Of a stretch of DNA of 23,320 nt, positions 5,538-21,934 are shown piece after piece; position 1 is the first letter of the stretch, and each line of letters begins with the position of its first letter. The DNA comes from Promethearchaeota archaeon (GTDB lineage Archaea; Asgardarchaeota; Lokiarchaeia; Sigyniarchaeales; SOKP01), in assembly GCA_018238625.1 (NCBI GenBank), contig JABCSY010000063.1:1-23320 (forward strand). The letters run 5' to 3'. The notes under the pieces are model-generated. The model was given only the letters and a program-made list of their open reading frames with translations, was not told the origin of the DNA and ran no database searches. Position numbers and translations under genes: made by a program.

Positions 5538-6035
5538 TTATGAAATTAAATATATCCAATCTAATTCTTTTACGGTTTTATGAAGCATATGATCGTCTTT
5601 CGTTGAATTATATTCTATGTTTGTAAATAACTTGTAAGCTTGTTCGCGAGAGGTTTTAAATTGTACTACATCGTCATTTTCACCGTGATAAGCTATAACA
5701 GGCACATTCACCGGATTATATTTCTCTAAATCCAATACTGATGGCGCTAAATATGGCGCTAATAAAATCAATTTTTTAACCTTTTTAGGGTTTTGAAGCG
5801 TATATATTGCACCCATTAGGCCCCCAAAACTTGAACCTATCACTATCCATGAGTTCTTTCCCCTTAAAATTGATGTTAACTGAGCCATTCTCTTTTCAAG
5901 AATGTCGTTAATTGATTTTTTTTGGTCAAACTCAATAAAATCAGGAGTAAGAATTTCTGGAATTAATTTTTTTAAATACACTCCTTTAAAACCTTTGCCC
6001 GAGCTTTCTAGACCGTGTATGAATATAACATTCAT
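5538..6035 (-). CDS. YqiA/YcfP-like alpha/beta hydrolase (esterase)
   Basis: IFIHGLESS, nucleophile elbow GSSFGG, HGENDDVV and C-terminal DDHM. Start moved from 6080 to the ATG at 6035 (MNVIFIHG), which removes the overlap with the upstream gene. Confidence 0.85.
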   Translation of the reverse strand: MNVIFIHGLESSGKGFKGVYLKKLIPEILTPDFIEFDQKKSINDILEKRMAQLTSILRGKNSWIVIGSSFGGLMGAIYTLQNPKKVKKLILLAPYLAPSVLDLEKYNPVNVPVIAYHGENDDVVQFKTSREQAYKLFTNIEYNSTKDDHMLHKTVKELDWIYLIS

Positions 6036-6063
6036 TATTATTAATTTAGTAGAAATAATTTTC

Positions 6064-7137
6064 TCATTTATCCTGATCATTATCGAGGTCTTCTGGTGAT
6101 AATGGGTTTAATTCTTTTTTTAATTCTCTAAATAGCTTTTTCTGACCGAAAAAAATTAAAAGGAAAAGGATAGCAAAATAAATAGTTACTATAATGAGTG
6201 TCAAGAAATAATAGGTTTTTGTAAACGACATGAAATGCAGCGCAACTCCGATAATAAAACCCGTAAGCAACCGAGATTCCGTAGTGCTTTTCCTAAATAA
6301 GAGTTTTTGAGTTCCCCAATCTATCATCCCCGGTATTGGAAAGATGATTATTATAAGTAAAGCTATTTCAGCGCTAAATTGAACGTTAAATATCAATTCA
6401 GATAAATGCGTAAAAAATACAGAGATAATAATTCCTATTATCATCCCCGAACATCTTGAACATAAATATATTTTTGTCCTTCCAAATTGAAAATAAAATG
6501 TATGGTCGCTAGCTTCAACTGGGTGATGTGTTAAGAGGACATAGTATAGATGGCGTTCTTTTGATGCTAACAATTTATCGTAGATAATTAAAAGAATAGG
6601 TATTGAAAAAATGGTTGATATAAGCGTTTGCAAGAAAAATTTAAACCCAAAGTTGATAAAAATAGTTTCCAATTCTAAAGGACTTGAATATAGCGAAAGT
6701 TGGAATACAATAATTAAAAACATCACAATAAACGAATTGATTACCAATAACAAAAAAGTGTAATAAACAACCATACCTTTTTGATATTTTAAAGGCTTAT
6801 ATTTATATAAACCGGCTATTAAACCATAAATAGCCACGACAAGGCACCAATCTAAGTAAATATTGTTGTAAAACGCGAATTGGTATAGGAGTTCACCTAA
6901 AAAGCCCGCTATAAACGCTTGAATTGGACCGGCTATTATCGAAAAAAATGTAAAAATTAATAACAACAACCCAAAAATTATTGAAAACTCATTAATTCCA
7001 ATATAGGGTGTGGAAATTGAACCAAAAACTTCCGATATATACATATAACTCATAATAATAAAAACTGTTATGAGAATGTTCATAAATATCGATCTTAAGC
7101 TAAATTTTGGCGTCTTTTTAGCGGTGTCAACGCTCAT
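6064..7137 (-). CDS. polytopic membrane protein: ECF S-component-like N-half fused to DUF2085-like C-half
   Basis: SIIAGPIQAFIAGFLGELL...YGLIAGL resembles ECF S-components. THHP...HTF...LCSRCSGMIIG...PGMIDWGTQ...SRLLTGFIIG resembles DUF2085. Confidence 0.65.
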   Translation of the reverse strand: MSVDTAKKTPKFSLRSIFMNILITVFIIMSYMYISEVFGSISTPYIGINEFSIIFGLLLLIFTFFSIIAGPIQAFIAGFLGELLYQFAFYNNIYLDWCLVVAIYGLIAGLYKYKPLKYQKGMVVYYTFLLLVINSFIVMFLIIVFQLSLYSSPLELETIFINFGFKFFLQTLISTIFSIPILLIIYDKLLASKERHLYYVLLTHHPVEASDHTFYFQFGRTKIYLCSRCSGMIIGIIISVFFTHLSELIFNVQFSAEIALLIIIIFPIPGMIDWGTQKLLFRKSTTESRLLTGFIIGVALHFMSFTKTYYFLTLIIVTIYFAILFLLIFFGQKKLFRELKKELNPLSPEDLDNDQDK

Positions 7138-7962: not shown

Positions 7963-8619
7963 TTAAATATAAGTATCGTCTATAGCTTCAATAAATTCCT
8001 TTTTTGTTACTTCAAACCCTTTTCTTAGCGCTTTGCAAATAATTTTCTTCCCAGTTGGCAACGAAAGAATAGATGGATCTTCTTCAATAATTTTAATTCC
8101 ATTTTCAGTAAGTTCTAATTGCTTCATTAAATTACTAGTTGCTATTTCTTTTGTTTTAAACGCAACTCTACAAAGGTCTCCGTAGTCTTTTATGTCCTCT
8201 TTAACTTCTAAAAAAATTTTAACTTCTTTTAGATAATTGATGAAGGTGTTTTTTGAATTATTTTTTAACTTCTCGTAGTTTTTATGATGCTTGCTACATT
8301 GATAAGTAACTTGGTCATATTTTAAAAAATTAGGAAAATTTTCTTCGATAATGTTATTAAAACTTTCTTCAGAATTGCCGTTTAGTAGCAATTTCTTTCC
8401 AGCCTCTAGGGAGATATTTATTTGTTTTAACGTACCTTTTCTCGCGTCGTGTTGTGCCCAATAATCGTAAAACGCTTTGACGATCGGTCGTACTATAAAA
8501 TTCAAGATTCCCGTATCTAATTCACTATCAATTAGCTTTCTTCCTAACTTAAGCGATTCTTCCATTTGAAAAATCATTCGCTCTTTCACAATGCCATAAT
8601 TCCGTTCTAAATAATCCAA
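7963..8619 (-). CDS. hypothetical helical protein, paralogue B of a tandem pair
   Basis: 218 aa, TTG start with GGGGA (8630-8626) upstream. Collinear with 7175-7852. Confidence 0.85.
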   Translation of the reverse strand: MDYLERNYGIVKERMIFQMEESLKLGRKLIDSELDTGILNFIVRPIVKAFYDYWAQHDARKGTLKQINISLEAGKKLLLNGNSEESFNNIIEENFPNFLKYDQVTYQCSKHHKNYEKLKNNSKNTFINYLKEVKIFLEVKEDIKDYGDLCRVAFKTKEIATSNLMKQLELTENGIKIIEEDPSILSLPTGKKIICKALRKGFEVTKKEFIEAIDDTYI

Positions 8620-8811: not shown

Positions 8812-11800
8812 ATGCGTTACATCTTTAAAATTCTCTTATTGGGTTTAGATGGCGAAGCTATTTCTTTTTACGCTCTTAGAGCATTCGGGGAAGAGGGTGA
8901 AAATAAAGGAGCGTATTTGGAGTTTTATAAGGAAGTAAAAGCCTTCGAGGATATTTGCGATTTAGAAGTAAACGCAATAACCGATGTTATTAACGCAGAT
9001 TTTGATGATATCGTCCCAACTGTTGATGGCATAGTATATTTTTTGAACCCTCTAAACGAAGAGGAGAATGAATTTTTCGACATTATATTACCTATTGTTA
9101 AATCAGTTAAAAGAAACATCCCCATTGTTTTGATGTACTACGATCAACAAGGAATTCTTCCTTTATCTGTAAACGAGATGTTAGAAAGTCTTTGGTTCAA
9201 ATATCTTGACATAGAAGCATTTGTTAATCTTCCACCAAGAGAATTCCACCAAGTTTTGCAGTGTTTGTGCGTAGCAATGATAACGGGAATCTCCCCTCTT
9301 AACATCGAAAACGCGTGGATGAGGTTTCCCATTTATATTCAACTAGCAAATATTTTTTTCAAAAAAGCAGAAAAAGAATTCAAACCTGAATTTTATTTTT
9401 TTGCTGCCCAAGCCATTAAAAAAGCTGCGATAATTGCCGATATATTAAATAAAGAGGAATTTTACATAATGTGCGAACAAGCAGCTTTTCTCTATTCAAA
9501 AGTTAAGTTATATTTAGATGCTTCACAAATTTTACAAAATGTTGATAAAAAAAAATCGGAAAACTTCAAGAAGTTATACGCAGATAGTATGGTTTTAGAA
9601 GGTAATAAATTATTTAATAAAAGACAATACGATCTTGCGGCAAGGCAATACTTGGCAGCGGCCCAATGGTCGTCAATAGAACTCAAAGATAACGATTTGC
9701 GAGACGAATCGTTTCTTTTAGCAATTAATTCTTGGGTTTCTGCTTGTAAAGTTGAAAATGCGTTCGAAATTATCAATAGTCTCCCCCACGAGAAAACGCT
9801 TCTTATTCTACGTGAAATTCCTCAAAAAATTATTGCAATGGCGGATTATTTAATTAAGGAAAGGAAATATTTGACTGTCCGCGATCAGTTGTACAGTGCA
9901 GTCTCCGAATATCAACAAGAAGGCTTATTTGACGAATTAGAAAAAGTTACTTCTAAGTTGACTGAAGTCTTAATAACATTATTAAAACAACAGCTCAAGG
10001 AAGAAAAAAGGTTTTTTGCAAAGCAATCTTATGATGAAATCGAAAATCTTTGGCAAACTTATGATGTTAAAAAATCAAATGTAGACGCTCAATTAGAAAA
10101 ATTAATTAAATTATTCTTAGACAATCTTGAATTTGGCAACGCTACAATTTTAACTAATAAGTTAAATTCCTTGTCTGTAAAGAAAAAATTAACGAAATTA
10201 AGCTCTAAAGTTGAAGACGAAAATAAGGAGTTAATAAAGAAGGAAATAGAAGAAAATATTGAGAAAGGTGTGGAAATTCTAAACGGTTTTATTGAAAAGG
10301 AGATAGAAATTTTTACAGAAATTAACACCCTAATAATTCAAGAAGCTAATTCATTAATTGAAAGCAACGATTATCCAAAAGCCGCTAATCTGGTGAAAAT
10401 CCAAGCAGATTTTTTCAAACGAATTGCAAGGGAAGATATTCAAAATCAAATGTTAAAAAAAACCTTAGATATCCTCTTAATTGGTAAAATTTATGATCAA
10501 TTTTTTAAAGTGTATCGCGAATTATCAAAGAGAACAAAAAAGGAGTATTTAAAGAACAAACTTGCTATTATCATTGAAAAGTTAAATGAAATTGTAGAGG
10601 AACGAGATTACGAAGAAAATGAAAAAATATTTGAGCTTATTATTTCAATTTTTAGAGAACAAATGTTATACGAGCAATCTAAGGAAATTAGCAGTATCTT
10701 TATAGAATCAATCAAAGCCGAAGGACTCAAAATTGTCGAAAGTAGCGAAGATAAATTTGTCATCGAAACATCCTTGGATTTAATTAAAAAAGCTACAGAT
10801 ATTTCGTCAGCATATATGGAAAACCCGGAATTGAGTTTTAATAAGATATATAAGAGGATTACAGAAATATATATAACTTTAGATGATTTATCTTCTGCTC
10901 ACGCTATTACCGATAAAATCGACGATAAATCCCTTAAAACTGAGCTTAATAAGAGAATTGAAAATCTCGAAGCCGAAAAAAGCGCCATTATCGTTAAGAA
11001 AGCCGAAGAATCTTTTGAAGGGGAGGTTTTAAAAGAAAGACTCTCGATAATTCAAAGCAAAGCAAGAGAGGCGTTCCATGACAAGGAAAGGGAATTCAAA
11101 CAGAGAAAAGCCTTTAAAAAAACCTATTATCTTGACGCGTTAGCGTATTTGAGTACGCAAGATTTAGATAATGCCATAGAGGAATATAAAGAAAGCATAA
11201 AAAATTTAATTAGAATAAAAAAATATAATTTAGCTGGCGTTTCTTTAGCAGTACTTTTTCTATTGCTTATCAAACAAAATAAAATTGAAGATATTAACAA
11301 AATACTAATACGCGCAAAAACTAGTTTATCGAGTTTAGAAAAATCATTTACTGAAACTTTTCCAGTATCTTTAGTTGAATACCTTATAGATATCGAAAAA
11401 TTAAGCGATCCTGTTGTGTTGAATGAATCAATACAGTTTATGGAAAATTTGCCTTTATTTGAAGAAGAAACCTTCCTAATTTCTGATATCTTAGGTAAGT
11501 CACATAAAATAATTAGTGAGCCTGAAGATTTAAAAAAGCAAATTATTGAAATTGAGAAAATAAAAGATAAAATTAACGAATTATCTAAAAGTATACAAAA
11601 AGAAAGGAAAGATGTTGCAAGAAGAAAATTAATGAAAAATCAATATTGGAAATTAGCTTTAGAGGATCTTTCTAACAAAAAATTTCAAGTAGCCACAAAT
11701 GAATACAGTGATACAATTCCGAAATTACTGGAAAAAGATTTTCCTAAGCAAGCCTCAATAAGTCTGATATTAAGCACGTTTTTAATGGTGAAAACAAAGG

Positions 11801-12555
11801 GCGCGTCATTAGCTCAATCCTATTTAATTGATAAACTAGCGAAACATAAAAAACACGATCTTGAAGATATGCCGGAGATACAAATCACAAAAGAGCTTCT
11901 TTCAGCGATGGATAACAATGATTTAGAACTAATAGGTTTATGTTTAGACATTCTAATAGATAAATTAACTCTTTTTGACCCAGAGATCTTATTACTCGAA
12001 TCTCTTTTACACAAAAAAAAAGAACGAGGAGAAGAAGAAGTAAAATTAACACGGAAAGAAGTTGGAAAAATAAACCTACTCAATATAGAAATGGATCAAA
12101 TAGATGGTAAACTAAGGCAAAAAGAGGGAGATACTAGGAGAGAACGAGAAGAATTCTTAAAGAAACGTAGCGTAATGAAAAAGAGATATTACAAAGATGT
12201 AATTGAATCTCTCGAAAGTACTTCATTTAAAAAGGCGGGTCTGCAATATCTCGAATTAGCAAAAGCAACATCGAAAAGAAAAGACCTTAGAACAAGTTCG
12301 CTATTAATTCTTTTGCACGGATTATCCCTTCTAAAAGTAAACGAACCGATTAAGGAAATAAAAACAAATATTAAAATATTTCTTGACTTATTAGGTTTAA
12401 ATAAGCAATTAGTTGAAGATACTTTCCATATTACTCTCATAAAATTTTACTTAGATGTGATTTCGCATAATCTTGATAAATATCTTTCACATATAAGAGA
12501 AATGTTAGAATTATTACCTCTATTTGAAGAAGAAAGACAGTTAATTGAAATTTAA
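8812..12555 (+). CDS. large alpha-solenoid protein with degenerate N-terminal small-GTPase-like domain and three C-terminal repeats
   Basis: 1247 aa. The N-terminal strands YIFKILLLG, VDGIVYFLN and IPIVLMY follow Ras-fold order. TPR-like helices follow (GNKLFNKRQYDLAARQYLAAA). R-x2-[FM]-K-x2-Y-[YW]...L[PT]LF units occur three times. Confidence 0.85.
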   Translation: MRYIFKILLLGLDGEAISFYALRAFGEEGENKGAYLEFYKEVKAFEDICDLEVNAITDVINADFDDIVPTVDGIVYFLNPLNEEENEFFDIILPIVKSVKRNIPIVLMYYDQQGILPLSVNEMLESLWFKYLDIEAFVNLPPREFHQVLQCLCVAMITGISPLNIENAWMRFPIYIQLANIFFKKAEKEFKPEFYFFAAQAIKKAAIIADILNKEEFYIMCEQAAFLYSKVKLYLDASQILQNVDKKKSENFKKLYADSMVLEGNKLFNKRQYDLAARQYLAAAQWSSIELKDNDLRDESFLLAINSWVSACKVENAFEIINSLPHEKTLLILREIPQKIIAMADYLIKERKYLTVRDQLYSAVSEYQQEGLFDELEKVTSKLTEVLITLLKQQLKEEKRFFAKQSYDEIENLWQTYDVKKSNVDAQLEKLIKLFLDNLEFGNATILTNKLNSLSVKKKLTKLSSKVEDENKELIKKEIEENIEKGVEILNGFIEKEIEIFTEINTLIIQEANSLIESNDYPKAANLVKIQADFFKRIAREDIQNQMLKKTLDILLIGKIYDQFFKVYRELSKRTKKEYLKNKLAIIIEKLNEIVEERDYEENEKIFELIISIFREQMLYEQSKEISSIFIESIKAEGLKIVESSEDKFVIETSLDLIKKATDISSAYMENPELSFNKIYKRITEIYITLDDLSSAHAITDKIDDKSLKTELNKRIENLEAEKSAIIVKKAEESFEGEVLKERLSIIQSKAREAFHDKEREFKQRKAFKKTYYLDALAYLSTQDLDNAIEEYKESIKNLIRIKKYNLAGVSLAVLFLLLIKQNKIEDINKILIRAKTSLSSLEKSFTETFPVSLVEYLIDIEKLSDPVVLNESIQFMENLPLFEEETFLISDILGKSHKIISEPEDLKKQIIEIEKIKDKINELSKSIQKERKDVARRKLMKNQYWKLALEDLSNKKFQVATNEYSDTIPKLLEKDFPKQASISLILSTFLMVKTKGASLAQSYLIDKLAKHKKHDLEDMPEIQITKELLSAMDNNDLELIGLCLDILIDKLTLFDPEILLLESLLHKKKERGEEEVKLTRKEVGKINLLNIEMDQIDGKLRQKEGDTRREREEFLKKRSVMKKRYYKDVIESLESTSFKKAGLQYLELAKATSKRKDLRTSSLLILLHGLSLLKVNEPIKEIKTNIKIFLDLLGLNKQLVEDTFHITLIKFYLDVISHNLDKYLSHIREMLELLPLFEEERQLIEI

Positions 12556-13481
12556 ACGGTGTTGGCTATTGCACTAGCTGCAAATTTCATGAGATCTTTT
12601 ACGCGCATCCTTAATGTAACTTCGGTAACGCGAGCTAATTTGCTAATTTCTTTCTGAGTGCGATTTTCATTACAGCGCCTAGATCCAATGTAAATTGCCG
12701 CAGCGGCTATCCCTTTTGGATCTTTTCCCGCAGAATTAAATCCGTTTTCAGCAGCACTTTTTATAATTTTTACTGCGATGTTCCTGCATTGCATGCTGAG
12801 CTTTAGCTCGGAGTTAAATCTATCCACATATTTATCAGGTGTAAAATGTTGCACCTTCAGATTTAATTTTGGTAAAATTTCCATTAATATTAATCTATAG
12901 CTCTTAATCACTTTCTTTTTTGGTATTTGCGCAACTTTTGTAATTTCTTCCACAGTTCGAGGGATGCCATGCACTCTTAACGCGCAAAATATTGAAGCAG
13001 CGAGTAGAGTATCGATACTTCTCCCCATTGTTAACTTTTTTTTTACGGTTTGTGTGTAAATTCTTAGCGCATCCTCAGCTACGGTATCTGAGATTCCTAA
13101 TCTTTTTTGTAACCTTTGTAAGTTAGGTAACGCAATCCATAAATTTCTCTCGTAGCTAGTAGTTAAGGATCTATGAATTTTTGCCAGTCTATTGAATTTA
13201 GATTTGTATTTTGGGCTTAACAAAATACCTCGCGCGTCTCTACTACCTCTTATAATCGTTCGTGGGCCTATAGGACTATAAACTCTTTCGTTACTCTTTC
13301 TTTTTTGTATTTCTTCTTGCGTGAATGCTCTTCGAGGTGAATCGTCAAGAATTCTATCGTACACCAAACCACAATTCAAACAAACATAGAAACCAAGTTC
13401 CTTACTGATTTTTGGAGAGTCGCAACAATACTCGTCTTCCTCCTTGTCAATATTTCCTTTATCTTTAGAATTTGGTTGCAT
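12552..13481 (-). CDS. tfb: transcription initiation factor IIB (TFB)
   Basis: Zn ribbon (CC...VCLNCG), ERNL...LQRL, and two cyclin repeats (MGRSIDTLLAASIF...PRTVEEI; GKDPKGIAAAAIY...TQKEISKLARVTEVTLR). Stop overlaps the convergent gene by 4 bp. Confidence 0.95.
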   Translation of the reverse strand: MQPNSKDKGNIDKEEDEYCCDSPKISKELGFYVCLNCGLVYDRILDDSPRRAFTQEEIQKRKSNERVYSPIGPRTIIRGSRDARGILLSPKYKSKFNRLAKIHRSLTTSYERNLWIALPNLQRLQKRLGISDTVAEDALRIYTQTVKKKLTMGRSIDTLLAASIFCALRVHGIPRTVEEITKVAQIPKKKVIKSYRLILMEILPKLNLKVQHFTPDKYVDRFNSELKLSMQCRNIAVKIIKSAAENGFNSAGKDPKGIAAAAIYIGSRRCNENRTQKEISKLARVTEVTLRMRVKDLMKFAASAIANTV

Positions 13482-13688
13482 ATTATCCGTTTAAATTAAA
13501 TGTAAATAATTGGACTATTCAATTTCAGTATAGTATTTAAAATAAACTGTATATTTTAATTTATCTAATTTAATTTCTGATGTGAAAATTTAGTCTATTT
13601 AACTATTATCTTATAAGTTTAAAAATTAATAATTATATTAATTCAAAGTTTAATAAATAATTACAAATTTATACAAGTTGGTAGCAAA

Positions 13689-14933
13689 ATGTCGTCCGAT
13701 ATCTCAAAAGTATTAAATGTCTTCTTAAAATTTCTAGACCCAAAAGTAGCTAAAATTGGTAAACTCAAAACCATTGAAGAAATAAAAGAATTACCAATAT
13801 ACTCTTACAAATTTCTTACAAAAAGCGAAGCTAAGGTTCTGAAAGATATATTGGACATATCTAATATCGAAGAAGCTTCCAAATTAGACAAGGAAAACCC
13901 CTTTGAAAGTTTAAATAATATTGGTTCAACTAAAGACCCGATTAAAGCTGCTGAAATCCAAGACGAATTAAGCGAAAAAATAGATGTGCTTAAAGAGAAA
14001 TACCCCGAACTTGAAGATAGCTTAAAAAAAGCAATTGTTATTAGTTCTATAATTACCAGAGTCGTAGATGAAGAAGATAGTTTAGAAAAAGCAGCGCAGA
14101 AAATAATAATAATTGGGTTAGACAATGCGGGAAAGACTGCAATTTTGAACAAGTTTGGAGGGCGGTTAGGTATTAACGATTTAGCTAACTTAAAGCCAAC
14201 TAAAGGTGTAGATCGTCGTTTTGTTAAAACCGAAAACTCTGAATTGGATCTTTATGTTTGGGATATGGGGGGTCAAGAAAAATACCGAAGTAAGTATTTA
14301 AATAATCCAGAACAATATTTTTTGAATCTTGATTTATTGATCTATGTAATTGACATGCAAGACTCGAATCGATTTGTGGAGAGTTTTGAGTATTTTGAAC
14401 AAATTCTTAAAATTTTAAACCTTATAGAAGAGGAACCTTTTATTTTAATATACATACACAAATGCGACCCGGATTTAAAACACGACCCCGAATCATTGCT
14501 TAAGATTGAACTTCTAAAAGAAAACCTTAATCAATTATTAACTCAGTACGGATTCGATTATGAAGCTTATTTAACTTCCATTTTTTCGTTAATCTCTACC
14601 GAACCCAAGTTTTCTAAATACATCAAAGAAGTAATGAGCTCAACAGACTCGTTAACAAACCCAACTTTAAAAAAGGTCGAAGGTCTGGGAAAAACTTTAG
14701 AAGAAACTATGAACGCGGTTATACGCTTATCTGAAAGCCTTTCCAAACAACTATCTGAATTGGATAACAGATTACGCGCAATTGAAAGCGGAGCTTTTCA
14801 AATGGCCCAAAGTGGAATTCCAATTGGAATTGCCAATCCTAATACGGCGTCAGAAAACCCAGGAGATTCCAGAACAACAGTTTTAAATGAATTGAAACAA
14901 TTATTTGAAAAAAAACGTAAATTAAACCTTTAG
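13689..14933 (+). CDS. Arf/Rag-like small GTPase with N-terminal extension and C-terminal coiled coil
   Basis: G1 GLDNAGKT, G2 KPTKG, G3 WDMGGQ, G4 HKCD, G5 YLTSIF. ~135-aa N-extension. Heptad segment LEETMNAVIRLSESLSKQLSELDNRLRAIE. Confidence 0.9.
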   Translation: MSSDISKVLNVFLKFLDPKVAKIGKLKTIEEIKELPIYSYKFLTKSEAKVLKDILDISNIEEASKLDKENPFESLNNIGSTKDPIKAAEIQDELSEKIDVLKEKYPELEDSLKKAIVISSIITRVVDEEDSLEKAAQKIIIIGLDNAGKTAILNKFGGRLGINDLANLKPTKGVDRRFVKTENSELDLYVWDMGGQEKYRSKYLNNPEQYFLNLDLLIYVIDMQDSNRFVESFEYFEQILKILNLIEEEPFILIYIHKCDPDLKHDPESLLKIELLKENLNQLLTQYGFDYEAYLTSIFSLISTEPKFSKYIKEVMSSTDSLTNPTLKKVEGLGKTLEETMNAVIRLSESLSKQLSELDNRLRAIESGAFQMAQSGIPIGIANPNTASENPGDSRTTVLNELKQLFEKKRKLNL

Positions 14934-14992
14934 ACCTTTCATTAGAATTTAATTATTGTAATTTGATTTAAACCAATAAAGAGAGGTTCTAT

Positions 14993-15706
14993 TTATTTAA
15001 AACTTCCAATAATCTCTTTAATTCTTTTGTTAATAGCAACAAGAAAAACTAATGTAACTATCCCAATAACTAAAATTAAATACCAAATGTTTTCAAATAG
15101 TAAGGGATTAAATACGTGATAGTGAATAGTCCCTCCATAAAATTGCTCAAAAAAAGTAATTATACTCAACAAGATTGGTGCAGCTAAAATTACAGCAAAA
15201 AAAAACCCAATAATCCCAATAAAAAAACCGAAAATTACATCGCTAGGGTAATGTACTCCTAATTGAATCCTGGAAAAAGAGACACTCACAGCAAAAATAA
15301 AGACAATAATAGTTATCGCTATTGAGTTTAACAAATAAGCAAATAACAATCCTTGAGAAAAAACATTATAAGCGTGCCAAGAAGGAAAGCTCCTCGAAGT
15401 TGGTTTTCGCTCTAGAACATTTATCTCTTTTAGCGTTTCGAAAGGTCTTTCTCTATCAAAACTCTTTTTTAATGGAGCAATTACGATTACACCAAGCAGA
15501 AATATTGTCGAAATATTTGAAAACAAAAATGGTGCGTACCAAATGAATAAGTAAAACACCATTAGAACGATCCATATAGTCTCTCTTCCCAAAAATGATA
15601 CAATTTTTAGAAAATTAGTGAAAAAATTACCTCCAATGCCGTTATATTTTAAAATTATTTTCTGATCCCAATTATTGACCTTGTTAAATATGTTTTTTAA
15701 TTCCAT
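14993..15706 (-). CDS. PAP2-family membrane phosphatase
   Basis: C1 KKSFDRERP, C2 SFPSWH, C3 SRIQLGVHYPSDV, multiple TM helices. Confidence 0.9.
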   Translation of the reverse strand: MELKNIFNKVNNWDQKIILKYNGIGGNFFTNFLKIVSFLGRETIWIVLMVFYLFIWYAPFLFSNISTIFLLGVIVIAPLKKSFDRERPFETLKEINVLERKPTSRSFPSWHAYNVFSQGLLFAYLLNSIAITIIVFIFAVSVSFSRIQLGVHYPSDVIFGFFIGIIGFFFAVILAAPILLSIITFFEQFYGGTIHYHVFNPLLFENIWYLILVIGIVTLVFLVAINKRIKEIIGSFK

Positions 15707-16573: not shown

Positions 16574-18481
16574 TTAATCCATCGAATTTTCCTTGTCAAA
16601 ATACACTTCGTAAAACAATTCTTTTTCACCCACTTCAGGTGGATTAATTTTAGTATACCCTCCTTTTCGGATAATTTGGACCGTGCTTTTATTTTGAATG
16701 TGGATGCTGCCATAAAATCCTTTTATCCCTTTTTCTTTCGCGATGATAATTAAATGGTGATAGAGAAAGGAACCTATGCCTTTTCCTCTATAATCCTCTC
16801 TTACTACAAAACTATATTCTGCTAAATTCATGGTTGGATTTAAATAATAAGTAGCATTTCCTATCATAGCTTCGTTTCCGACCTCTCCCACATAAGCTCC
16901 GATAGAGAATACATTATTATAGTCGATATTTACTTCACTTTGAGTCTTAGAATGGGTGAATTCCTTCCTTACTTCAAAAAAGCGTAAATACCTATCTCTC
17001 TCGTTTAAGGAATAATAAAGCTCTTTTAATAAAGGCTCGTCAGTAGTTCTAACTGGTCTAACTACGATCTTTTCGTTATTTCTTGCAGTGTATATTGTTT
17101 CGTACTTGAAAGGATACATACAGATGTTTCCATGCTCGTCGCAAGGTAGAATTTGATCCGAATAAATATAATTTAACTTTTTCGCGTGTTCTAACAACTG
17201 TTCTCTAAATTTAGGATGAGCTACGCAAATTAGTTCAATAACTCGTTCTCTAATTGTCTTACCGTGCACATAAGCAACGCCCCATTCGGTAACTACGTAA
17301 TGAACGTCTGCTCGAGATAAAATTACTCCGGCACCTTCATCTAAATGAGGTACAATATTTGAAACGGTCTCATTTTTTCTTGTCGACGCGAGCACGACAA
17401 TCGGTTTTCCCCCTTTAGAAAAAGCTGCCCCCCTCATGAAATCTACCGTATCCCCAATCCCAGAATAGAAGTTATACCCTTTAGTAGAAGTATTAACTTG
17501 CCCCGTTAAATCAATTTGCAAACCTTGGTTTATAGAAACCATTTTTTTGTTCATTCCAATGTATTTTGGATTACAAACGTAGTCACTAGGATAAAACTCT
17601 ATATACGGGTTATTATTTACGAAGTCATACAATTTTTTAGTGCCTAACGCGAAACTTGTTATAATCTTTTCAGGGTGAAAATTTTTCTTTCTACAAGTTA
17701 GAACTGTGTTTTCTATCAAAGGAATTATATTATCCGTGATATAATGGCTATGCATGCCTAAATCTTTTTTACTCATTAAATATTTTAAGCAAGCGTTCGG
17801 TAAATAACCGTTACCAATATGAATCGTCGATTTGTTTTCAATTAAATTTGCTACATTCTTTCCAATTTTTCCCGAAACAATAATTTTTTCTTTAAATTGG
17901 AACTCTAATAGTGGCACATCGTTGTAAACGAAATAGTCGATGTCTTTCATGTGAATAAAGCTATTGCCCAAGGTTCGGGGCATTTGAGAGTTAATTTCAG
18001 CGATTGTTAAATAAGCAGCTTGGGCTATGGGTTTTGCCACATCAATGTTAATCCCAAACGAACAAAAACCGTAACGATCTGGTGGTGTGACTTGAATAAG
18101 AGCAACATCGCAATTTTTACGCCCTGAAAGAAATAAAGAAGGAATTTCGCTCGCTAATATTGGTGTATAATCAGCTTGCCCTTTATTTATCTCCTCTCGT
18201 AGGGTTTTACCTATGAAAAATGCGTTATGTCTAAAAAGATCTTCCCTTTTATCTTTAAAATATTTTTCAGGACCAATCGTAAGAAAATGTATAATCTCCG
18301 TATCAATTAAACTTTCAGAAGACTTAATTAACTCAGTAGTAAGCGCTTGAGGCTCTGAACACGCAGAATCTACGAATACTCGGTTTCCGGGTATTATTTT
18401 TCCTATAGCTTCCTTTGCGGTTATCTCTTTTGCCTTCCACCTTTCTCTCCAATTCTTATCTGATGAATCCAATTGTTTCAT
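16574..18481 (-). CDS. acetyl-CoA hydrolase/CoA-transferase-fold domain fused to C-terminal Pat-type GNAT acetyltransferase
   Basis: DVALIQVTPPDRYGFCSFG, IAEINSQMPRTLG, QIDLTGQV, DFMRGA and VHYVVTEWGVA mark the CoA-transferase fold. VRPVRTTDEPLL...RYLRFF...AEYSFVVREDYRGKGIGS marks the GNAT. Confidence 0.9.
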   Translation of the reverse strand: MKQLDSSDKNWRERWKAKEITAKEAIGKIIPGNRVFVDSACSEPQALTTELIKSSESLIDTEIIHFLTIGPEKYFKDKREDLFRHNAFFIGKTLREEINKGQADYTPILASEIPSLFLSGRKNCDVALIQVTPPDRYGFCSFGINIDVAKPIAQAAYLTIAEINSQMPRTLGNSFIHMKDIDYFVYNDVPLLEFQFKEKIIVSGKIGKNVANLIENKSTIHIGNGYLPNACLKYLMSKKDLGMHSHYITDNIIPLIENTVLTCRKKNFHPEKIITSFALGTKKLYDFVNNNPYIEFYPSDYVCNPKYIGMNKKMVSINQGLQIDLTGQVNTSTKGYNFYSGIGDTVDFMRGAAFSKGGKPIVVLASTRKNETVSNIVPHLDEGAGVILSRADVHYVVTEWGVAYVHGKTIRERVIELICVAHPKFREQLLEHAKKLNYIYSDQILPCDEHGNICMYPFKYETIYTARNNEKIVVRPVRTTDEPLLKELYYSLNERDRYLRFFEVRKEFTHSKTQSEVNIDYNNVFSIGAYVGEVGNEAMIGNATYYLNPTMNLAEYSFVVREDYRGKGIGSFLYHHLIIIAKEKGIKGFYGSIHIQNKSTVQIIRKGGYTKINPPEVGEKELFYEVYFDKENSMD

Positions 18482-19951: not shown

Positions 19952-21934
19952 ATGTCAGAAAAAGACACAAAAATGGAAAGTGTACTCACTGAAAATCGGT
20001 TATTTAACCCCGTAGATGTCAGTCCCGACTATGCGAAAACTGGAATGTCAATGGAAGAATACCAGAAGTTATATAAACGATCCATAGAAGATAGGGAAGG
20101 GTTCTGGGACGAACAAGCTAAATCGATCGATTGGTTTAAACCATACGATAAAGTATGGGAAAAAACCGATCTATTTCCCGGAAAATGGTTTGTTGGCGGA
20201 AAACTTAACGTAGCCTACAATTGTCTTGACAGACATGTGAAAGCTGGCAATGGAGATCGAGTCGCTATTATATGGGAGGCTGACGAACCCGGTCAAGTGA
20301 GAAAATTCACATATACCGAGCTTTTAAAAGAAGTAAGTAAAGTAGCTAACGGTATGAGAGATTTCGGACTGAAAAAGGGCGATAGAGTAACCATTTGGTT
20401 ACCAATGATTCCCGAATTAGCGATTATAATGCTAGCCTGTGCTCGAATCGGCGTGATTCATTCCATAGTATTCGGTGGATTCTCGAAAGAAGCTGTGAAA
20501 GATAGAGTGAAAGATTCTGATTCGCGATTATTGTTTACGAGCGACGAAACTTTACGCGCTGGTAAGACTTACCCAAAAATGGCAGATGTCGTTAAGATTA
20601 TTGACGATGTACCAACAATCGAACACGTCATTGTCGTTAAGCGTTCAGGAAACGAAGTTCCTCACACAGATAAAGACATCTGGTATGATGATTTTATCGA
20701 CGGAATGAGCGACGAGTGTGAACCCGAAGAAATGGACTCCGAAGATACGCTATTTTTACTCTATACAAGCGGAACAACAGGAAAACCTAAAGGCGTTAAA
20801 CACACAACAGCCGGATATATCTTATATACATCGTTCACTCACAGAGTCGTATTCAATTACAAGAAAGGCGAGGTTTGGTACTGTACAGCGGATATTGGTT
20901 GGATAACGGGGCATAGTTATATTATATATGGTCCATTGGCAAATGGAGCAACCACTTTAATGTTTGAAAGCGTTCCAACATATCCTGATGTAGATCGTTT
21001 TTGGGACATTGTAGAACGCCATAAAGTCAACCAATTTTATACAGCTCCAACTGCAATACGTGCTCTAATGAGACACGGCGATGAACCAGTAAATAAACAC
21101 GACCTAAGCTCGTTAAAAGTCCTAGGTACTGTTGGAGAACCAATAAATCCTGAAGCATGGACATGGTACCATAGAGTTGTTGGTAAAGAGAAATGTCCTA
21201 TAGTTGATACTTACTGGCAAACTGAAACCGGTGGGTTTATTATGACCCCAATTGCTACAGCAACGCCCACAAAACCAGGGTCTTGTTGTATGCCTTTTTT
21301 CGGCATCAAACCAGTTATTTTTGACTTAGAAGGAGATGAAATTACCGAACCAAACGAAGGTGGATACTTCGCTATTCAAACTCCATGGCCGGGAATGTTA
21401 AGAGATGTTTGGGGCAATACTGATAGATTTATATCAACTTACCTCGAAAAGTATCCTGGACATTATTACACCGGAGATGGAGCACGAACAGATGACGATG
21501 GCTATTATTGGATCCTTGGACGATTGGATGATGTTATAAAAGTATCAGGGCACCGTATAGGAACAATGGAAGTAGAATCTGCTATAGTGAGTCATCCAAA
21601 GGTAGCGGAAGCTGCCGTAGCACCCTTTCCTCACAAGATTAAAGGGCAAGCTATTTGGGCGTTCGTGACGTTAATGGGTGGCATTGAAAAATCAGCAAAA
21701 TTATCGAAAGAGATTCGCATGCATGTTAGGCAAGAGATTGGTCCAGTATTTCAACCGGATGTAATTCAATTTGCTGATGCCTTGCCTAAAACGCGAAGTG
21801 GTAAGATAATGCGCAGAATTCTTAAAGCTATTGCTTCGGGCACAGAAATAGGTAATGTTACGACCTTAGCTGATCCTTCAGTAGTCGATGTACTGCTTGA
21901 AGAGCGTAAGAAAATGGATGTCGAAGTAGGTTAA
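19952..21934 (+). CDS. acs: acetate--CoA ligase (AMP-forming acetyl-CoA synthetase)
   Basis: LNVAYNCLDRH, YTSGTTGKPKG, CTADIGWITGHSY, VGEPINPEAW, DTYWQTETGG, GRLDDVIKVSGHRIGTMEVE, LPKTRSGKIMRR. Confidence 0.97.
   Translation: MSEKDTKMESVLTENRLFNPVDVSPDYAKTGMSMEEYQKLYKRSIEDREGFWDEQAKSIDWFKPYDKVWEKTDLFPGKWFVGGKLNVAYNCLDRHVKAGNGDRVAIIWEADEPGQVRKFTYTELLKEVSKVANGMRDFGLKKGDRVTIWLPMIPELAIIMLACARIGVIHSIVFGGFSKEAVKDRVKDSDSRLLFTSDETLRAGKTYPKMADVVKIIDDVPTIEHVIVVKRSGNEVPHTDKDIWYDDFIDGMSDECEPEEMDSEDTLFLLYTSGTTGKPKGVKHTTAGYILYTSFTHRVVFNYKKGEVWYCTADIGWITGHSYIIYGPLANGATTLMFESVPTYPDVDRFWDIVERHKVNQFYTAPTAIRALMRHGDEPVNKHDLSSLKVLGTVGEPINPEAWTWYHRVVGKEKCPIVDTYWQTETGGFIMTPIATATPTKPGSCCMPFFGIKPVIFDLEGDEITEPNEGGYFAIQTPWPGMLRDVWGNTDRFISTYLEKYPGHYYTGDGARTDDDGYYWILGRLDDVIKVSGHRIGTMEVESAIVSHPKVAEAAVAPFPHKIKGQAIWAFVTLMGGIEKSAKLSKEIRMHVRQEIGPVFQPDVIQFADALPKTRSGKIMRRILKAIASGTEIGNVTTLADPSVVDVLLEERKKMDVEVG

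Follow-up and report, generated by a model that had tools for sequence, protein, structure and literature searches.

To our knowledge, hardly any pseudo-GTPase domains have been described outside eukaryotic scaffolds. Two such cases are covered in the accessible text of one account (PMC10211241), where CENP-M is listed among signalling scaffolds, with a part in kinetochore assembly, and pG1 and pG2, two domains of p190RhoGAP, bind no nucleotide; according to that text, both have a Ras-like fold, have lost the motifs and are kept as a protein-interaction or assembly module. A GTPase-like head followed by an alpha-solenoid is described for Trs85, Trs120 and Trs130 in the available parts of two further papers (PMC8204860, PMC10152722). 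We analyzed a 23,320-nucleotide stretch of DNA, here called the window, from a Promethearchaeota archaeon (Lokiarchaeia; GenBank assembly GCA_018238625.1, contig JABCSY010000063.1, positions 1 to 23,320 of the forward strand). It carries, at 8812-12555 on the plus strand, a gene (P0001) for a protein of 1,247 residues whose N-terminal head is a predicted pseudo-GTPase and whose remainder is predicted to be a helical scaffold. The family of this giant protein is an order-restricted, putative pseudo-GTPase scaffold; the kind is known, and the family is undescribed in the literature that we found.

By analogy, the nearest kind in function would be the nucleotide-free pseudo-GTPase domains of eukaryotic scaffolds, and in architecture the large subunits of TRAPP. 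Unlike CENP-M and p190RhoGAP, the giant protein is archaeal, its head is fused to ~1,070 residues of helical repeats, no search returned a sequence relation to either protein, and its nucleotide-free state is presumed. With the TRAPP large subunits (Trs85/TRAPPC8, Trs120/TRAPPC9 and Trs130/TRAPPC10) it shares the domain order, which is a match of architecture only. In the accessible portions of the TRAPP papers, the Trs85 head carries insertions and its pocket contains a helix, and Ig-like domains form the ends of Trs120 and Trs130; the giant protein, by contrast, is all-helical after the head in the model and carries tandem SNAP-like modules.

The reading frame is open for 1,247 codons plus the stop. 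From the base composition of the window, the chance of 1,247 stop-free codons is ~1e-44. The start site is backed by alignment, as MRYIFK or a close variant opens all aligned relatives. We regard the gene as real because 246 relatives were found in a protein collection, 116 species-level genomes of GTDB encode a relative, and the ratio of nonsynonymous to synonymous substitution rates (dN/dS) over the whole gene is 0.20-0.32 in six pairs of four sequences, namely, the window and three close loci. The window is AT-rich (GC content, 24-41%) and archaeal, with genes for TFIIB and for an Arf/Rag-like GTPase flanking the open reading frame (ORF). An earlier note on this DNA, which had proposed a GTPase fold without its motifs on a helical scaffold, is supported on essentials. 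Every string that it named was found at the claimed place in the protein: FKILLLG at residues 5-11, GLDGEAIS at 11-18, CDLEVNAI at 49-56, VDGIVYFLNP at 71-80, NIPIVLMY at 102-109, YYD at 109-111, CEQAAFLYSKVKLYLDASQI at 221-240 and GNKLFNKRQYDLAARQYLAAAQW at 264-286. Its end of the feature at 9800 was arbitrary, since the protein continues to 12555. One metatranscriptome run (X20) yielded an 8.8-kb contig that spans window positions 9891-15000; with 336 differences in 3,670 bases it represents a ~91%-identical relative, and, carrying genes on both strands, it is not proof of transcription. The same contig has a 60-base replacement at 13560-13621, in the intergenic region between the TFIIB and GTPase genes. 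A second RNA run (X21) gave no match to the window.

The head comprises residues 1-160 (8812-9291, plus strand) and is predicted to have a Ras/Rab-like fold that lacks G1, G3, G4 and G5. We modeled residues 1-180 with AlphaFold2, using an alignment (A2) with 46 orthologous N termini from related loci. The model reached a predicted local distance difference test score (pLDDT) of 88 and a predicted template modeling score (pTM) of 0.87, and all five models had pLDDT values of 80-88. Its elements follow each other in the order β1 (2-10), α1 (14-25), β2 (35-44), β3 (47-56), α2 (64-70), β4 (73-78), α3 (83-97), β5 (105-109), α4 (120-130), β6 (135-138) and α5 (146-158). This order, β1-α1-β2-β3-α2-β4-α3-β5-α4-β6-α5, is that of Ras-type G domains. 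FKILLLG, CDLEVNAI, VDGIVYFLNP and NIPIVLMY, in which the earlier note had seen the strand order of the Ras superfamily, coincide with the predicted β1, β3, β4 and β5.

Structure searches with the head agreed with this assignment. Foldseek returned at least 500 matches in the PDB at an E value of ≤0.001, and 50 of the 50 listed were small GTPases. The top match was KRAS (E 2.7e-8; template modeling [TM] score, 0.70), with identities of 13-16%; an Asgard "Thorarchaeota Rab" ranked 44th among the matches listed. VIA, a search independent of Foldseek, placed Rab23 on top (Z 15.6; root mean square deviation [rmsd], 2.9 over 154 residues), with Rab3C, Rab28, Sec4 and Gem within 1 Z of it, and scored Arf, Rag, MglA and the Lokiarchaeal RagA-like structure 8yl2 lower (Z 12-13.5). 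In both searches, the 50 listed rows were all GTPases and aligned 140-160 of the 160 head residues. The model is thus a six-stranded Ras-like α/β fold, as predicted by AlphaFold2 and recognized by both searches, and the possibility that the N terminus would not model as a P-loop/Ras fold did not materialize. Compared with Rab and Ras GTPases (Rab23, Rab3C, Rab28, Sec4, Gem and K/H-Ras), the predicted fold is alike (Z 14.6-15.6; rmsd 2.7-3.3; 151-159 residues), whereas identity is 10-16%, the G motifs are all missing from the giant protein and there is no similarity at the level of hidden Markov models. In a language-model atlas, the nearest named clusters of residues 1-165 were Arf, Ras, RabL5/IFT22 and Miro, at 0.88-0.93, which we take as a weaker lead only; the whole protein returned its own family and nothing else.

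The loss of the nucleotide-binding motifs was examined in 157 family members that begin with the head, drawn from 164 stored proteins of which 7 were dropped by an N-terminus filter. The Walker A or G1 motif GxxxxGK[ST] occurs nowhere in the window protein and in none of the 157 members, either within residues 1-60 or anywhere else. Likewise, the G4 motif [NT]KxD is missing from residues 1-175 of the window protein and from all 157 members, and the G5 motif S[AC][KL] is found in 0 of the 157; in the window protein, YYD and FVNLPP occupy the places of G4 and G5. The G3 motif DxxG is absent from residues 45-75 of the window protein; a D..G string in this region of 8/157 members is a chance occurrence, with no conserved column. 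Any K[ST] within residues 8-25 was seen in a single member of the 157. The loop at the P-loop place is one residue shorter in many orthologues, and in the most distant members, which are 26-28% identical overall, it reads LGDPGLSLPF, LGDKKLSLPF, LGDINSALQY and similar. The degeneracy that had been noticed in a single protein is thus confirmed across the family, and the alternative that orthologues might carry an intact GxxxxGK[ST] fails even among these most distant members. Since none of the 157 has an intact P-loop, the head would be an ancestral pseudo-GTPase and not a case of local degeneration. Moreover, purifying selection acts on it (dN/dS, 0.12-0.28 in the same six pairs), which argues for an old, maintained pseudo-GTPase and against local decay. 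In the model, then, the head is a GTPase fold that has been retained while its nucleotide-binding motifs were lost, that is, a predicted pseudo-GTPase; judged from the motif loss, it most likely binds no nucleotide.

The head is followed by a junction at residues 161-185 (9292-9366, plus strand) with the near-invariant stretch PLNIENAWMRFPI at residues 162-174 (window 9295-9333). No other part of the protein is as well conserved (mean pairwise identity, 0.74; dN/dS, 0-0.03), and P162, L163, E166, N167, A168, W169, R171, P173, I174 and I176 show no variation among 47 sequences. The remainder, residues 176-1247, was folded by AlphaFold2 with 44 homologues (alignment A3; model numbering is residue number minus 175). 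It is entirely helical in the model, with no β or Ig-like domain, and has a pLDDT of 85.6 and a pTM of 0.37; its pieces are well defined in the prediction, and their mutual orientation is uncertain. Three very long helices (residues 454-517, 706-767 and 1081-1122) and disordered linkers (residues ~727-733, 898-907 and 1068-1079) are predicted. The first piece, module A, is a putative TPR-like helical module of residues 186-452 (9367-10167, plus strand) built of helix hairpins. It is followed by the first long single helix (residues 454-517, model 279-342, helical by DSSP; 10171-10362, plus strand) and by a second predicted helical module, B, of residues 518-705 (10363-10926, plus strand).

The earlier note had also been reminded of TPRs by the helical repeats, and several results bear this out. 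In the predicted model, helix-turn-helix hairpins are stacked as a superhelix. With VIA, model positions 135-300 (residues 310-475) matched three-TPR peptide-binding domains, with FKBP38 at Z 11.2 (rmsd 3.7 over 130 residues) and the TPR domains of FKBP52, Sec72 and AIPL1 also aligned (TPR matches at Z 10-11), and LGN/Pins TPR chains matched module A as well. Foldseek found 85 PDB chains at E ≤0.001 for residues 176-1247, with long TPR scaffolds first. These top matches were scaffolds of the PAF1 complex, the SKI complex and IFT-A (E 8e-7 to 1e-5), whereas TM scores of 0.07-0.13 and rmsd values of 40-55 Å mark a generic repeat likeness; we take the matched chains to be Ctr9, Ski3 and IFT139. 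In Pfam, TPR_2 was matched at E ≤0.01 by 9 of 30 members and TPR_1 by 3 of 30. A search of the whole window protein gave nothing at E ≤0.01, and its four fragments, searched at E ≤10, gave weak TPR_8/TPR_1 matches at residues 770-797, of which TPR_8 was the best (E 0.033).

The last ~500 residues consist of three homologous modules of ~150 residues, as hhalign related R1 to R2 with a probability of 98.5%, R1 to R3 with 99.0% and R2 to R3 with 97.7%; no relation of modules A and B to them was detectable (hhalign probability, <1%). R1 (residues 738-900; 11023-11511, plus strand) contains, besides a basic helix and a TPR-like motif, the sequence LPLFEEE at residues 880-886 (window 11449-11469). 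In R2 (residues 921-1075; 11572-12036, plus strand) the last motif takes the variant form LTLFDPE at residues 1052-1058 (11965-11985), and in R3 (residues 1091-1247; 12082-12552, plus strand) LPLFEEE stands at residues 1235-1241 (12514-12534). When 60 modules of 20 genomes were aligned, the positions that proved invariant or nearly so were an Arg of the basic helix, A...Y within the TPR-like motif and L-x-L...E within LPLFEEE. In the scaffold model, LPLFEEE precedes a short capping helix and then a flexible linker. Member lengths cluster at ~1,050-1,150 and at 1,200-1,299 residues, with one member, P0101, of 1,410 residues that has an insertion of ~170 residues in the region of the C-terminal modules. 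These lengths suggest to us a protein with two modules in many genomes of the genus g12 (e.g., P0121), with three in the window and with four in P0101.

A likeness of the helical hairpins to SNAP had been suggested for the helices at residues 221-286. A fold-level likeness was indeed found, and it maps not to those helices but to the C-terminal modules. In the whole-library VIA search of the scaffold, gamma-SNAP ranked first (Z 13.6). In a second look with VIA at the best 909 chains of Foldseek, the SNAP family took 11 of the top 16 rows, with gamma-SNAP (2ifu_D) at Z 16.6, Sec17 at Z 11.2-13.6 and alpha-SNAP at Z 10.1-12.2. All SNAP matches fall on model positions 578-897 (residues ~753-1072), covering R1 and R2; these SNAP adaptors, twisted sheets of helical hairpins, are the best structural match of residues ~766-1072. 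The rmsd of the alignments is high (24-32 Å) because each superposition stretches a single SNAP across two modules with a flexible link between them, and one SNAP row alone exceeds Z ~13, the level that helical repeats reach by common arrangement. A profile of the 60 modules found no SNAP among PDB sequences at E ≤10 (the best match was a designed repeat at E 0.002, followed by Get4 at E 0.15), and the Pfam SNAP family had no match in the window protein. We therefore regard the SNAP likeness of the predicted C-terminal modules as a real but unproven resemblance at the level of the fold.

The family is single copy and confined to part of one order (three or four families). The 120 relatives listed from the protein collection span 856-1,410 residues, the full-length ones being 1,021-1,410 residues long and 46-90% identical; where a name is given, it is "hypothetical protein," with a single exception that is probably misnamed. 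The head profile matched 136 of 400 Asgard genomes: 120/134 of family f1, 1/1 of f2, 13/14 of f3, 1/4 of f4 and none elsewhere, including none in the three other families of the same class. The match in f4 is weak (E 9e-4; 20% identity over 557 residues), and the full-length profile found nothing in five genomes of f4-f7 that are 81-94% complete. Nearly all genomes have one match; in the few that have two, the matches are pieces of a single gene. The orthologue is present in three closed f3 genomes, each a single contig. A spread across the Asgard classes was thus not found. Full-text searches of the literature turned up no description of the family and none of an Asgard pseudo-GTPase, and, for pseudo-GTPases together with archaea, only general reviews on pseudoenzymes and pseudokinases. 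The family is unmentioned in the accessible text of a preprint on solenoids (10.64898/2026.10.28.762692), whose supplementary cluster tables might list it. One fragment of the family, P0124 (509 residues), has an N-terminal extension of 133 residues before the head, which may reflect either another start site or a fusion.

Taking together the predicted fold, the motif loss, the module repeats, the purifying selection and the distribution, which come from prediction and comparison, we infer that the protein most likely acts as a scaffold. We put a probability of about 0.6 on the statement that the gene encodes a lineage-specific, nonenzymatic scaffold in which a dead Ras/Rab head and helical modules work multivalently and independently of nucleotide; for the architecture alone, our confidence is higher. 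In this proposal, the head would descend from a Ras/Rab-type small GTPase in which the Lys and Ser of the P-loop, DxxG, NKxD and SAK are all gone, and it would most likely serve as a fixed protein-docking or structural module. The junction PLNIENAWMRFPI would lock the head to the first helical hairpin. The TPR-like modules that follow, split by long helices, could offer TPR-like grooves, and the two to four flexibly linked homologous modules of ~150 residues (three here) could act as multivalent binding sites. The protein would then assemble or tether other proteins without enzymatic switching.

The neighborhood of the gene was compared in 80 related loci, many of them cut by contig ends, and in 10 loci of the distant families f2, f3 and f4. 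Divergent to the giant gene lies a gene on the minus strand (7963-8619) for a 218-residue protein, P0168, that belongs to no Pfam family and is adjacent in 78 of the 80 loci. Next to it is its 225-residue paralogue P0169 (7175-7852, minus strand); in loci with one copy, both match the same single ORF. A DUF2085 membrane protein (6064-7137, minus strand; Pfam PF09858, E 4.5e-15) follows and is present in 75/80 loci. The whole neighborhood is collinear, with an α/β hydrolase in 70, TFIIB in 70, the Arf/Rag-like GTPase in 66, PHP in 59, PAP2 in 58 and the acetyl-CoA hydrolase-GNAT gene in 53 of the 80 loci, and little about function can be read from collinearity of so general a kind. In 5 of the 10 distant loci (L081-L084 and L088), the ~220-residue protein and the DUF2085 protein still adjoin the giant gene divergently, while the rest of the synteny is lost in them; TFIIB and the GTPase are kept in 1/10. 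A reading of the gene order as a GTPase module was rejected on this account, as the order is inherited. By gene order alone, the pair of 220-residue proteins and the DUF2085 protein are the sole candidate partners. The P0168 family occurs in 155 of the 400 Asgard genomes, in all seven families (f1-f7) of the class and nowhere else.

Some features of these neighbors may be recorded beside their coordinates. P0168 and P0169, neither of which falls into a Pfam family, have a conserved motif of the type DQTxxQCxKxHKNY. The α/β-hydrolase gene (5538-6080, minus strand) overlaps the DUF2085 gene by 17 bases, and a single ORF matches both in L015, L016, L018, L020, L024, L025 and L027 (e.g., L015:4797-6365), suggesting a fusion protein in some genomes. 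The TFIIB gene (12552-13481, minus strand) converges on the giant gene and overlaps it by four bases, 12552-12555; the closest loci (e.g., L001) show the same tight layout. Downstream, by 1.1 kb from the giant gene, 13689-14933 (plus strand) encodes a 414-residue Arf/Gtr1-RagA-like GTPase whose G motifs are intact; ~130 residues extend its N terminus, its C-terminal tail is conserved, and among solved structures it is closest to the Lokiarchaeal RagA-like 8yl2 (E 2.2e-28). At 16574-18481 (minus strand) lies the gene for a 635-residue protein in which acetyl-CoA hydrolase/transferase domains are fused to a GNAT acetyltransferase domain at the C terminus. An AMP-forming acetyl-CoA synthetase gene (19952-21934) adjoins it, and the GC content there is 40-41%, compared with ~30% elsewhere.

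Several findings weigh against the scaffold proposal. Both structures, that of the head and that of the scaffold, are predictions. A sequence-level link of the head to GTPases was absent in each type of search: Pfam at E ≤10 on residues 1-180 gave no Ras, Arf, Roc or Gtr1_RagA and an unrelated YQBQ match alone (E 0.043); the head profile (A2) against PDB sequences gave nothing relevant and one unrelated match (E 0.5); against 1.84 billion representative proteins, it gave 48 matches, which are its own family and P0167 (E 7e-4), a repeat protein with a YFLNP-type word as its sole feature in common with the head, and no unfused or P-loop-bearing relative of the head was among them; and an hhalign comparison with the neighboring Arf/Rag-like family (probability, 1.3%; E 0.04; 43 columns) was rejected as evidence of homology. 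The window protein itself has no Pfam TPR match at E ≤0.01. Members of the P0168 family also turn up in genomes that gave no match to the giant protein; the family, being class-wide, is therefore not dependent on it. Finally, loops on the former nucleotide face are conserved (G11, D13, N79-P80, D111 and N139), and binding of a ligand or a partner could still take place there. This last point could be taken further, to a head that is still a ligand-controlled switch in which noncanonical binding of a nucleotide or a small molecule controls the conformation of the scaffold. These loops, at the C-terminal edge of the sheet, which is the nucleotide side in GTPases, hold some of the best-conserved residues of the head, D111 lines up with the HKxD Asp of the neighboring GTPase family in a single, nonsignificant hhalign segment, and the available text of PMC10211241 has the N-terminal domain of p190RhoGAP binding GTP that is not hydrolyzed. 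We nevertheless consider a switch unlikely, given that all 157 members lack a Lys or Ser/Thr at the P-loop position, that the loop GLDGEAIS has acidic residues and is shortened in many orthologues, and that the guanine-specificity motifs are gone. The lack of significant sequence similarity to any GTPase, together with an input alignment of 47 fairly similar sequences, would also fit a modeling artefact, the head being a generic three-layer α/β fold of flavodoxin- or Rossmann-like type without GTPase ancestry. We hold this to be very improbable: five models at pLDDT 80-88 have the antiparallel β2-β3 hairpin and the full Ras order of six strands and five helices, and the language-model neighbors, like the 50 rows listed in either search, are GTPases. 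A STAND/NB-ARC NTPase with a TPR sensor was rejected, as no Walker A was found in the 157 members and the head matches Ras-type and not STAND folds.

Lokiarchaeal genomes are rich in small GTPases, and one may ask whether the protein is an archaeal counterpart, homologous or convergent, of the TRAPP large subunits or other tethers, with head and solenoid bringing a guanine nucleotide exchange factor or the effector machinery of Asgard small GTPases into position on a membrane, perhaps via the DUF2085 protein. Trs120 and Trs130 are built alike, as far as the accessible parts of PMC8204860 and PMC10152722 go, the DUF2085 protein and the paralogues still adjoin the gene at 26-28% identity, and the Arf/Rag-like gene is 1.1 kb away. 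We rate this as quite unlikely, however. No Pfam TRAPP-subunit family was matched at E ≤10, no TRAPP chain was among the 50 listed rows of Foldseek or VIA, and the model has no Ig-like or β domains. Bet3, Sedlin and Sybindin (PF04051, PF04628 and PF04099) had 0 matches in the genome of origin (97.9% complete), a result to be read with the silence of the control genomes. The restriction to one order argues against ancestry of a pan-eukaryotic complex, and the GTPase neighbor is kept by inherited order only (1/10 distant loci). Membership in TRAPP is thus not supported by sequence family, listed structural match or Ig-like domain. Of the resemblance to eukaryotic trafficking and tethering scaffolds that the earlier note had seen, the domain architecture of Trs85, Trs120 and Trs130 stands, while homology is not supported and the family is limited to one archaeal order. 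A more elaborate version, a TRAPP- or tether-style platform of the Lokiarchaeales, independent of or parallel to that of eukaryotes, appears similarly doubtful to us; in it, the dead Rab-like head would permanently fill a GTPase-binding site and the SNAP-like modules would gather helical-bundle or small-GTPase clients at the DUF2085 membrane with the 220-residue adaptors. The prominence of SNAP chains in the VIA rows, with gamma-SNAP first in the Foldseek-independent search, might instead point to C-terminal modules that are SNAP-type adaptors and, in the way that SNAPs bring NSF to SNARE complexes, recruit a Cdc48/NSF-like AAA+ unfoldase to substrates that are helical bundles. We give this little credence: the rmsd values are 24-32 Å, a single row lies above Z ~13, and neither the module profile against the PDB nor Pfam returned a SNAP.

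If the pseudo-GTPase scaffold proposal holds, the family would show that the closest prokaryotic relatives of eukaryotes also reuse GTPase folds as fixed parts of scaffolds, here in the domain order of the TRAPP large subunits. Occurring in one order only, it provides no evidence for an ancestor of a eukaryotic complex. Were the TRAPP- or tether-style platform true, it would be a prokaryotic membrane-organizing scaffold made from the same parts as the eukaryotic trafficking machinery. The family offers a testable entry point to how Lokiarchaeia organize small GTPases and membranes.

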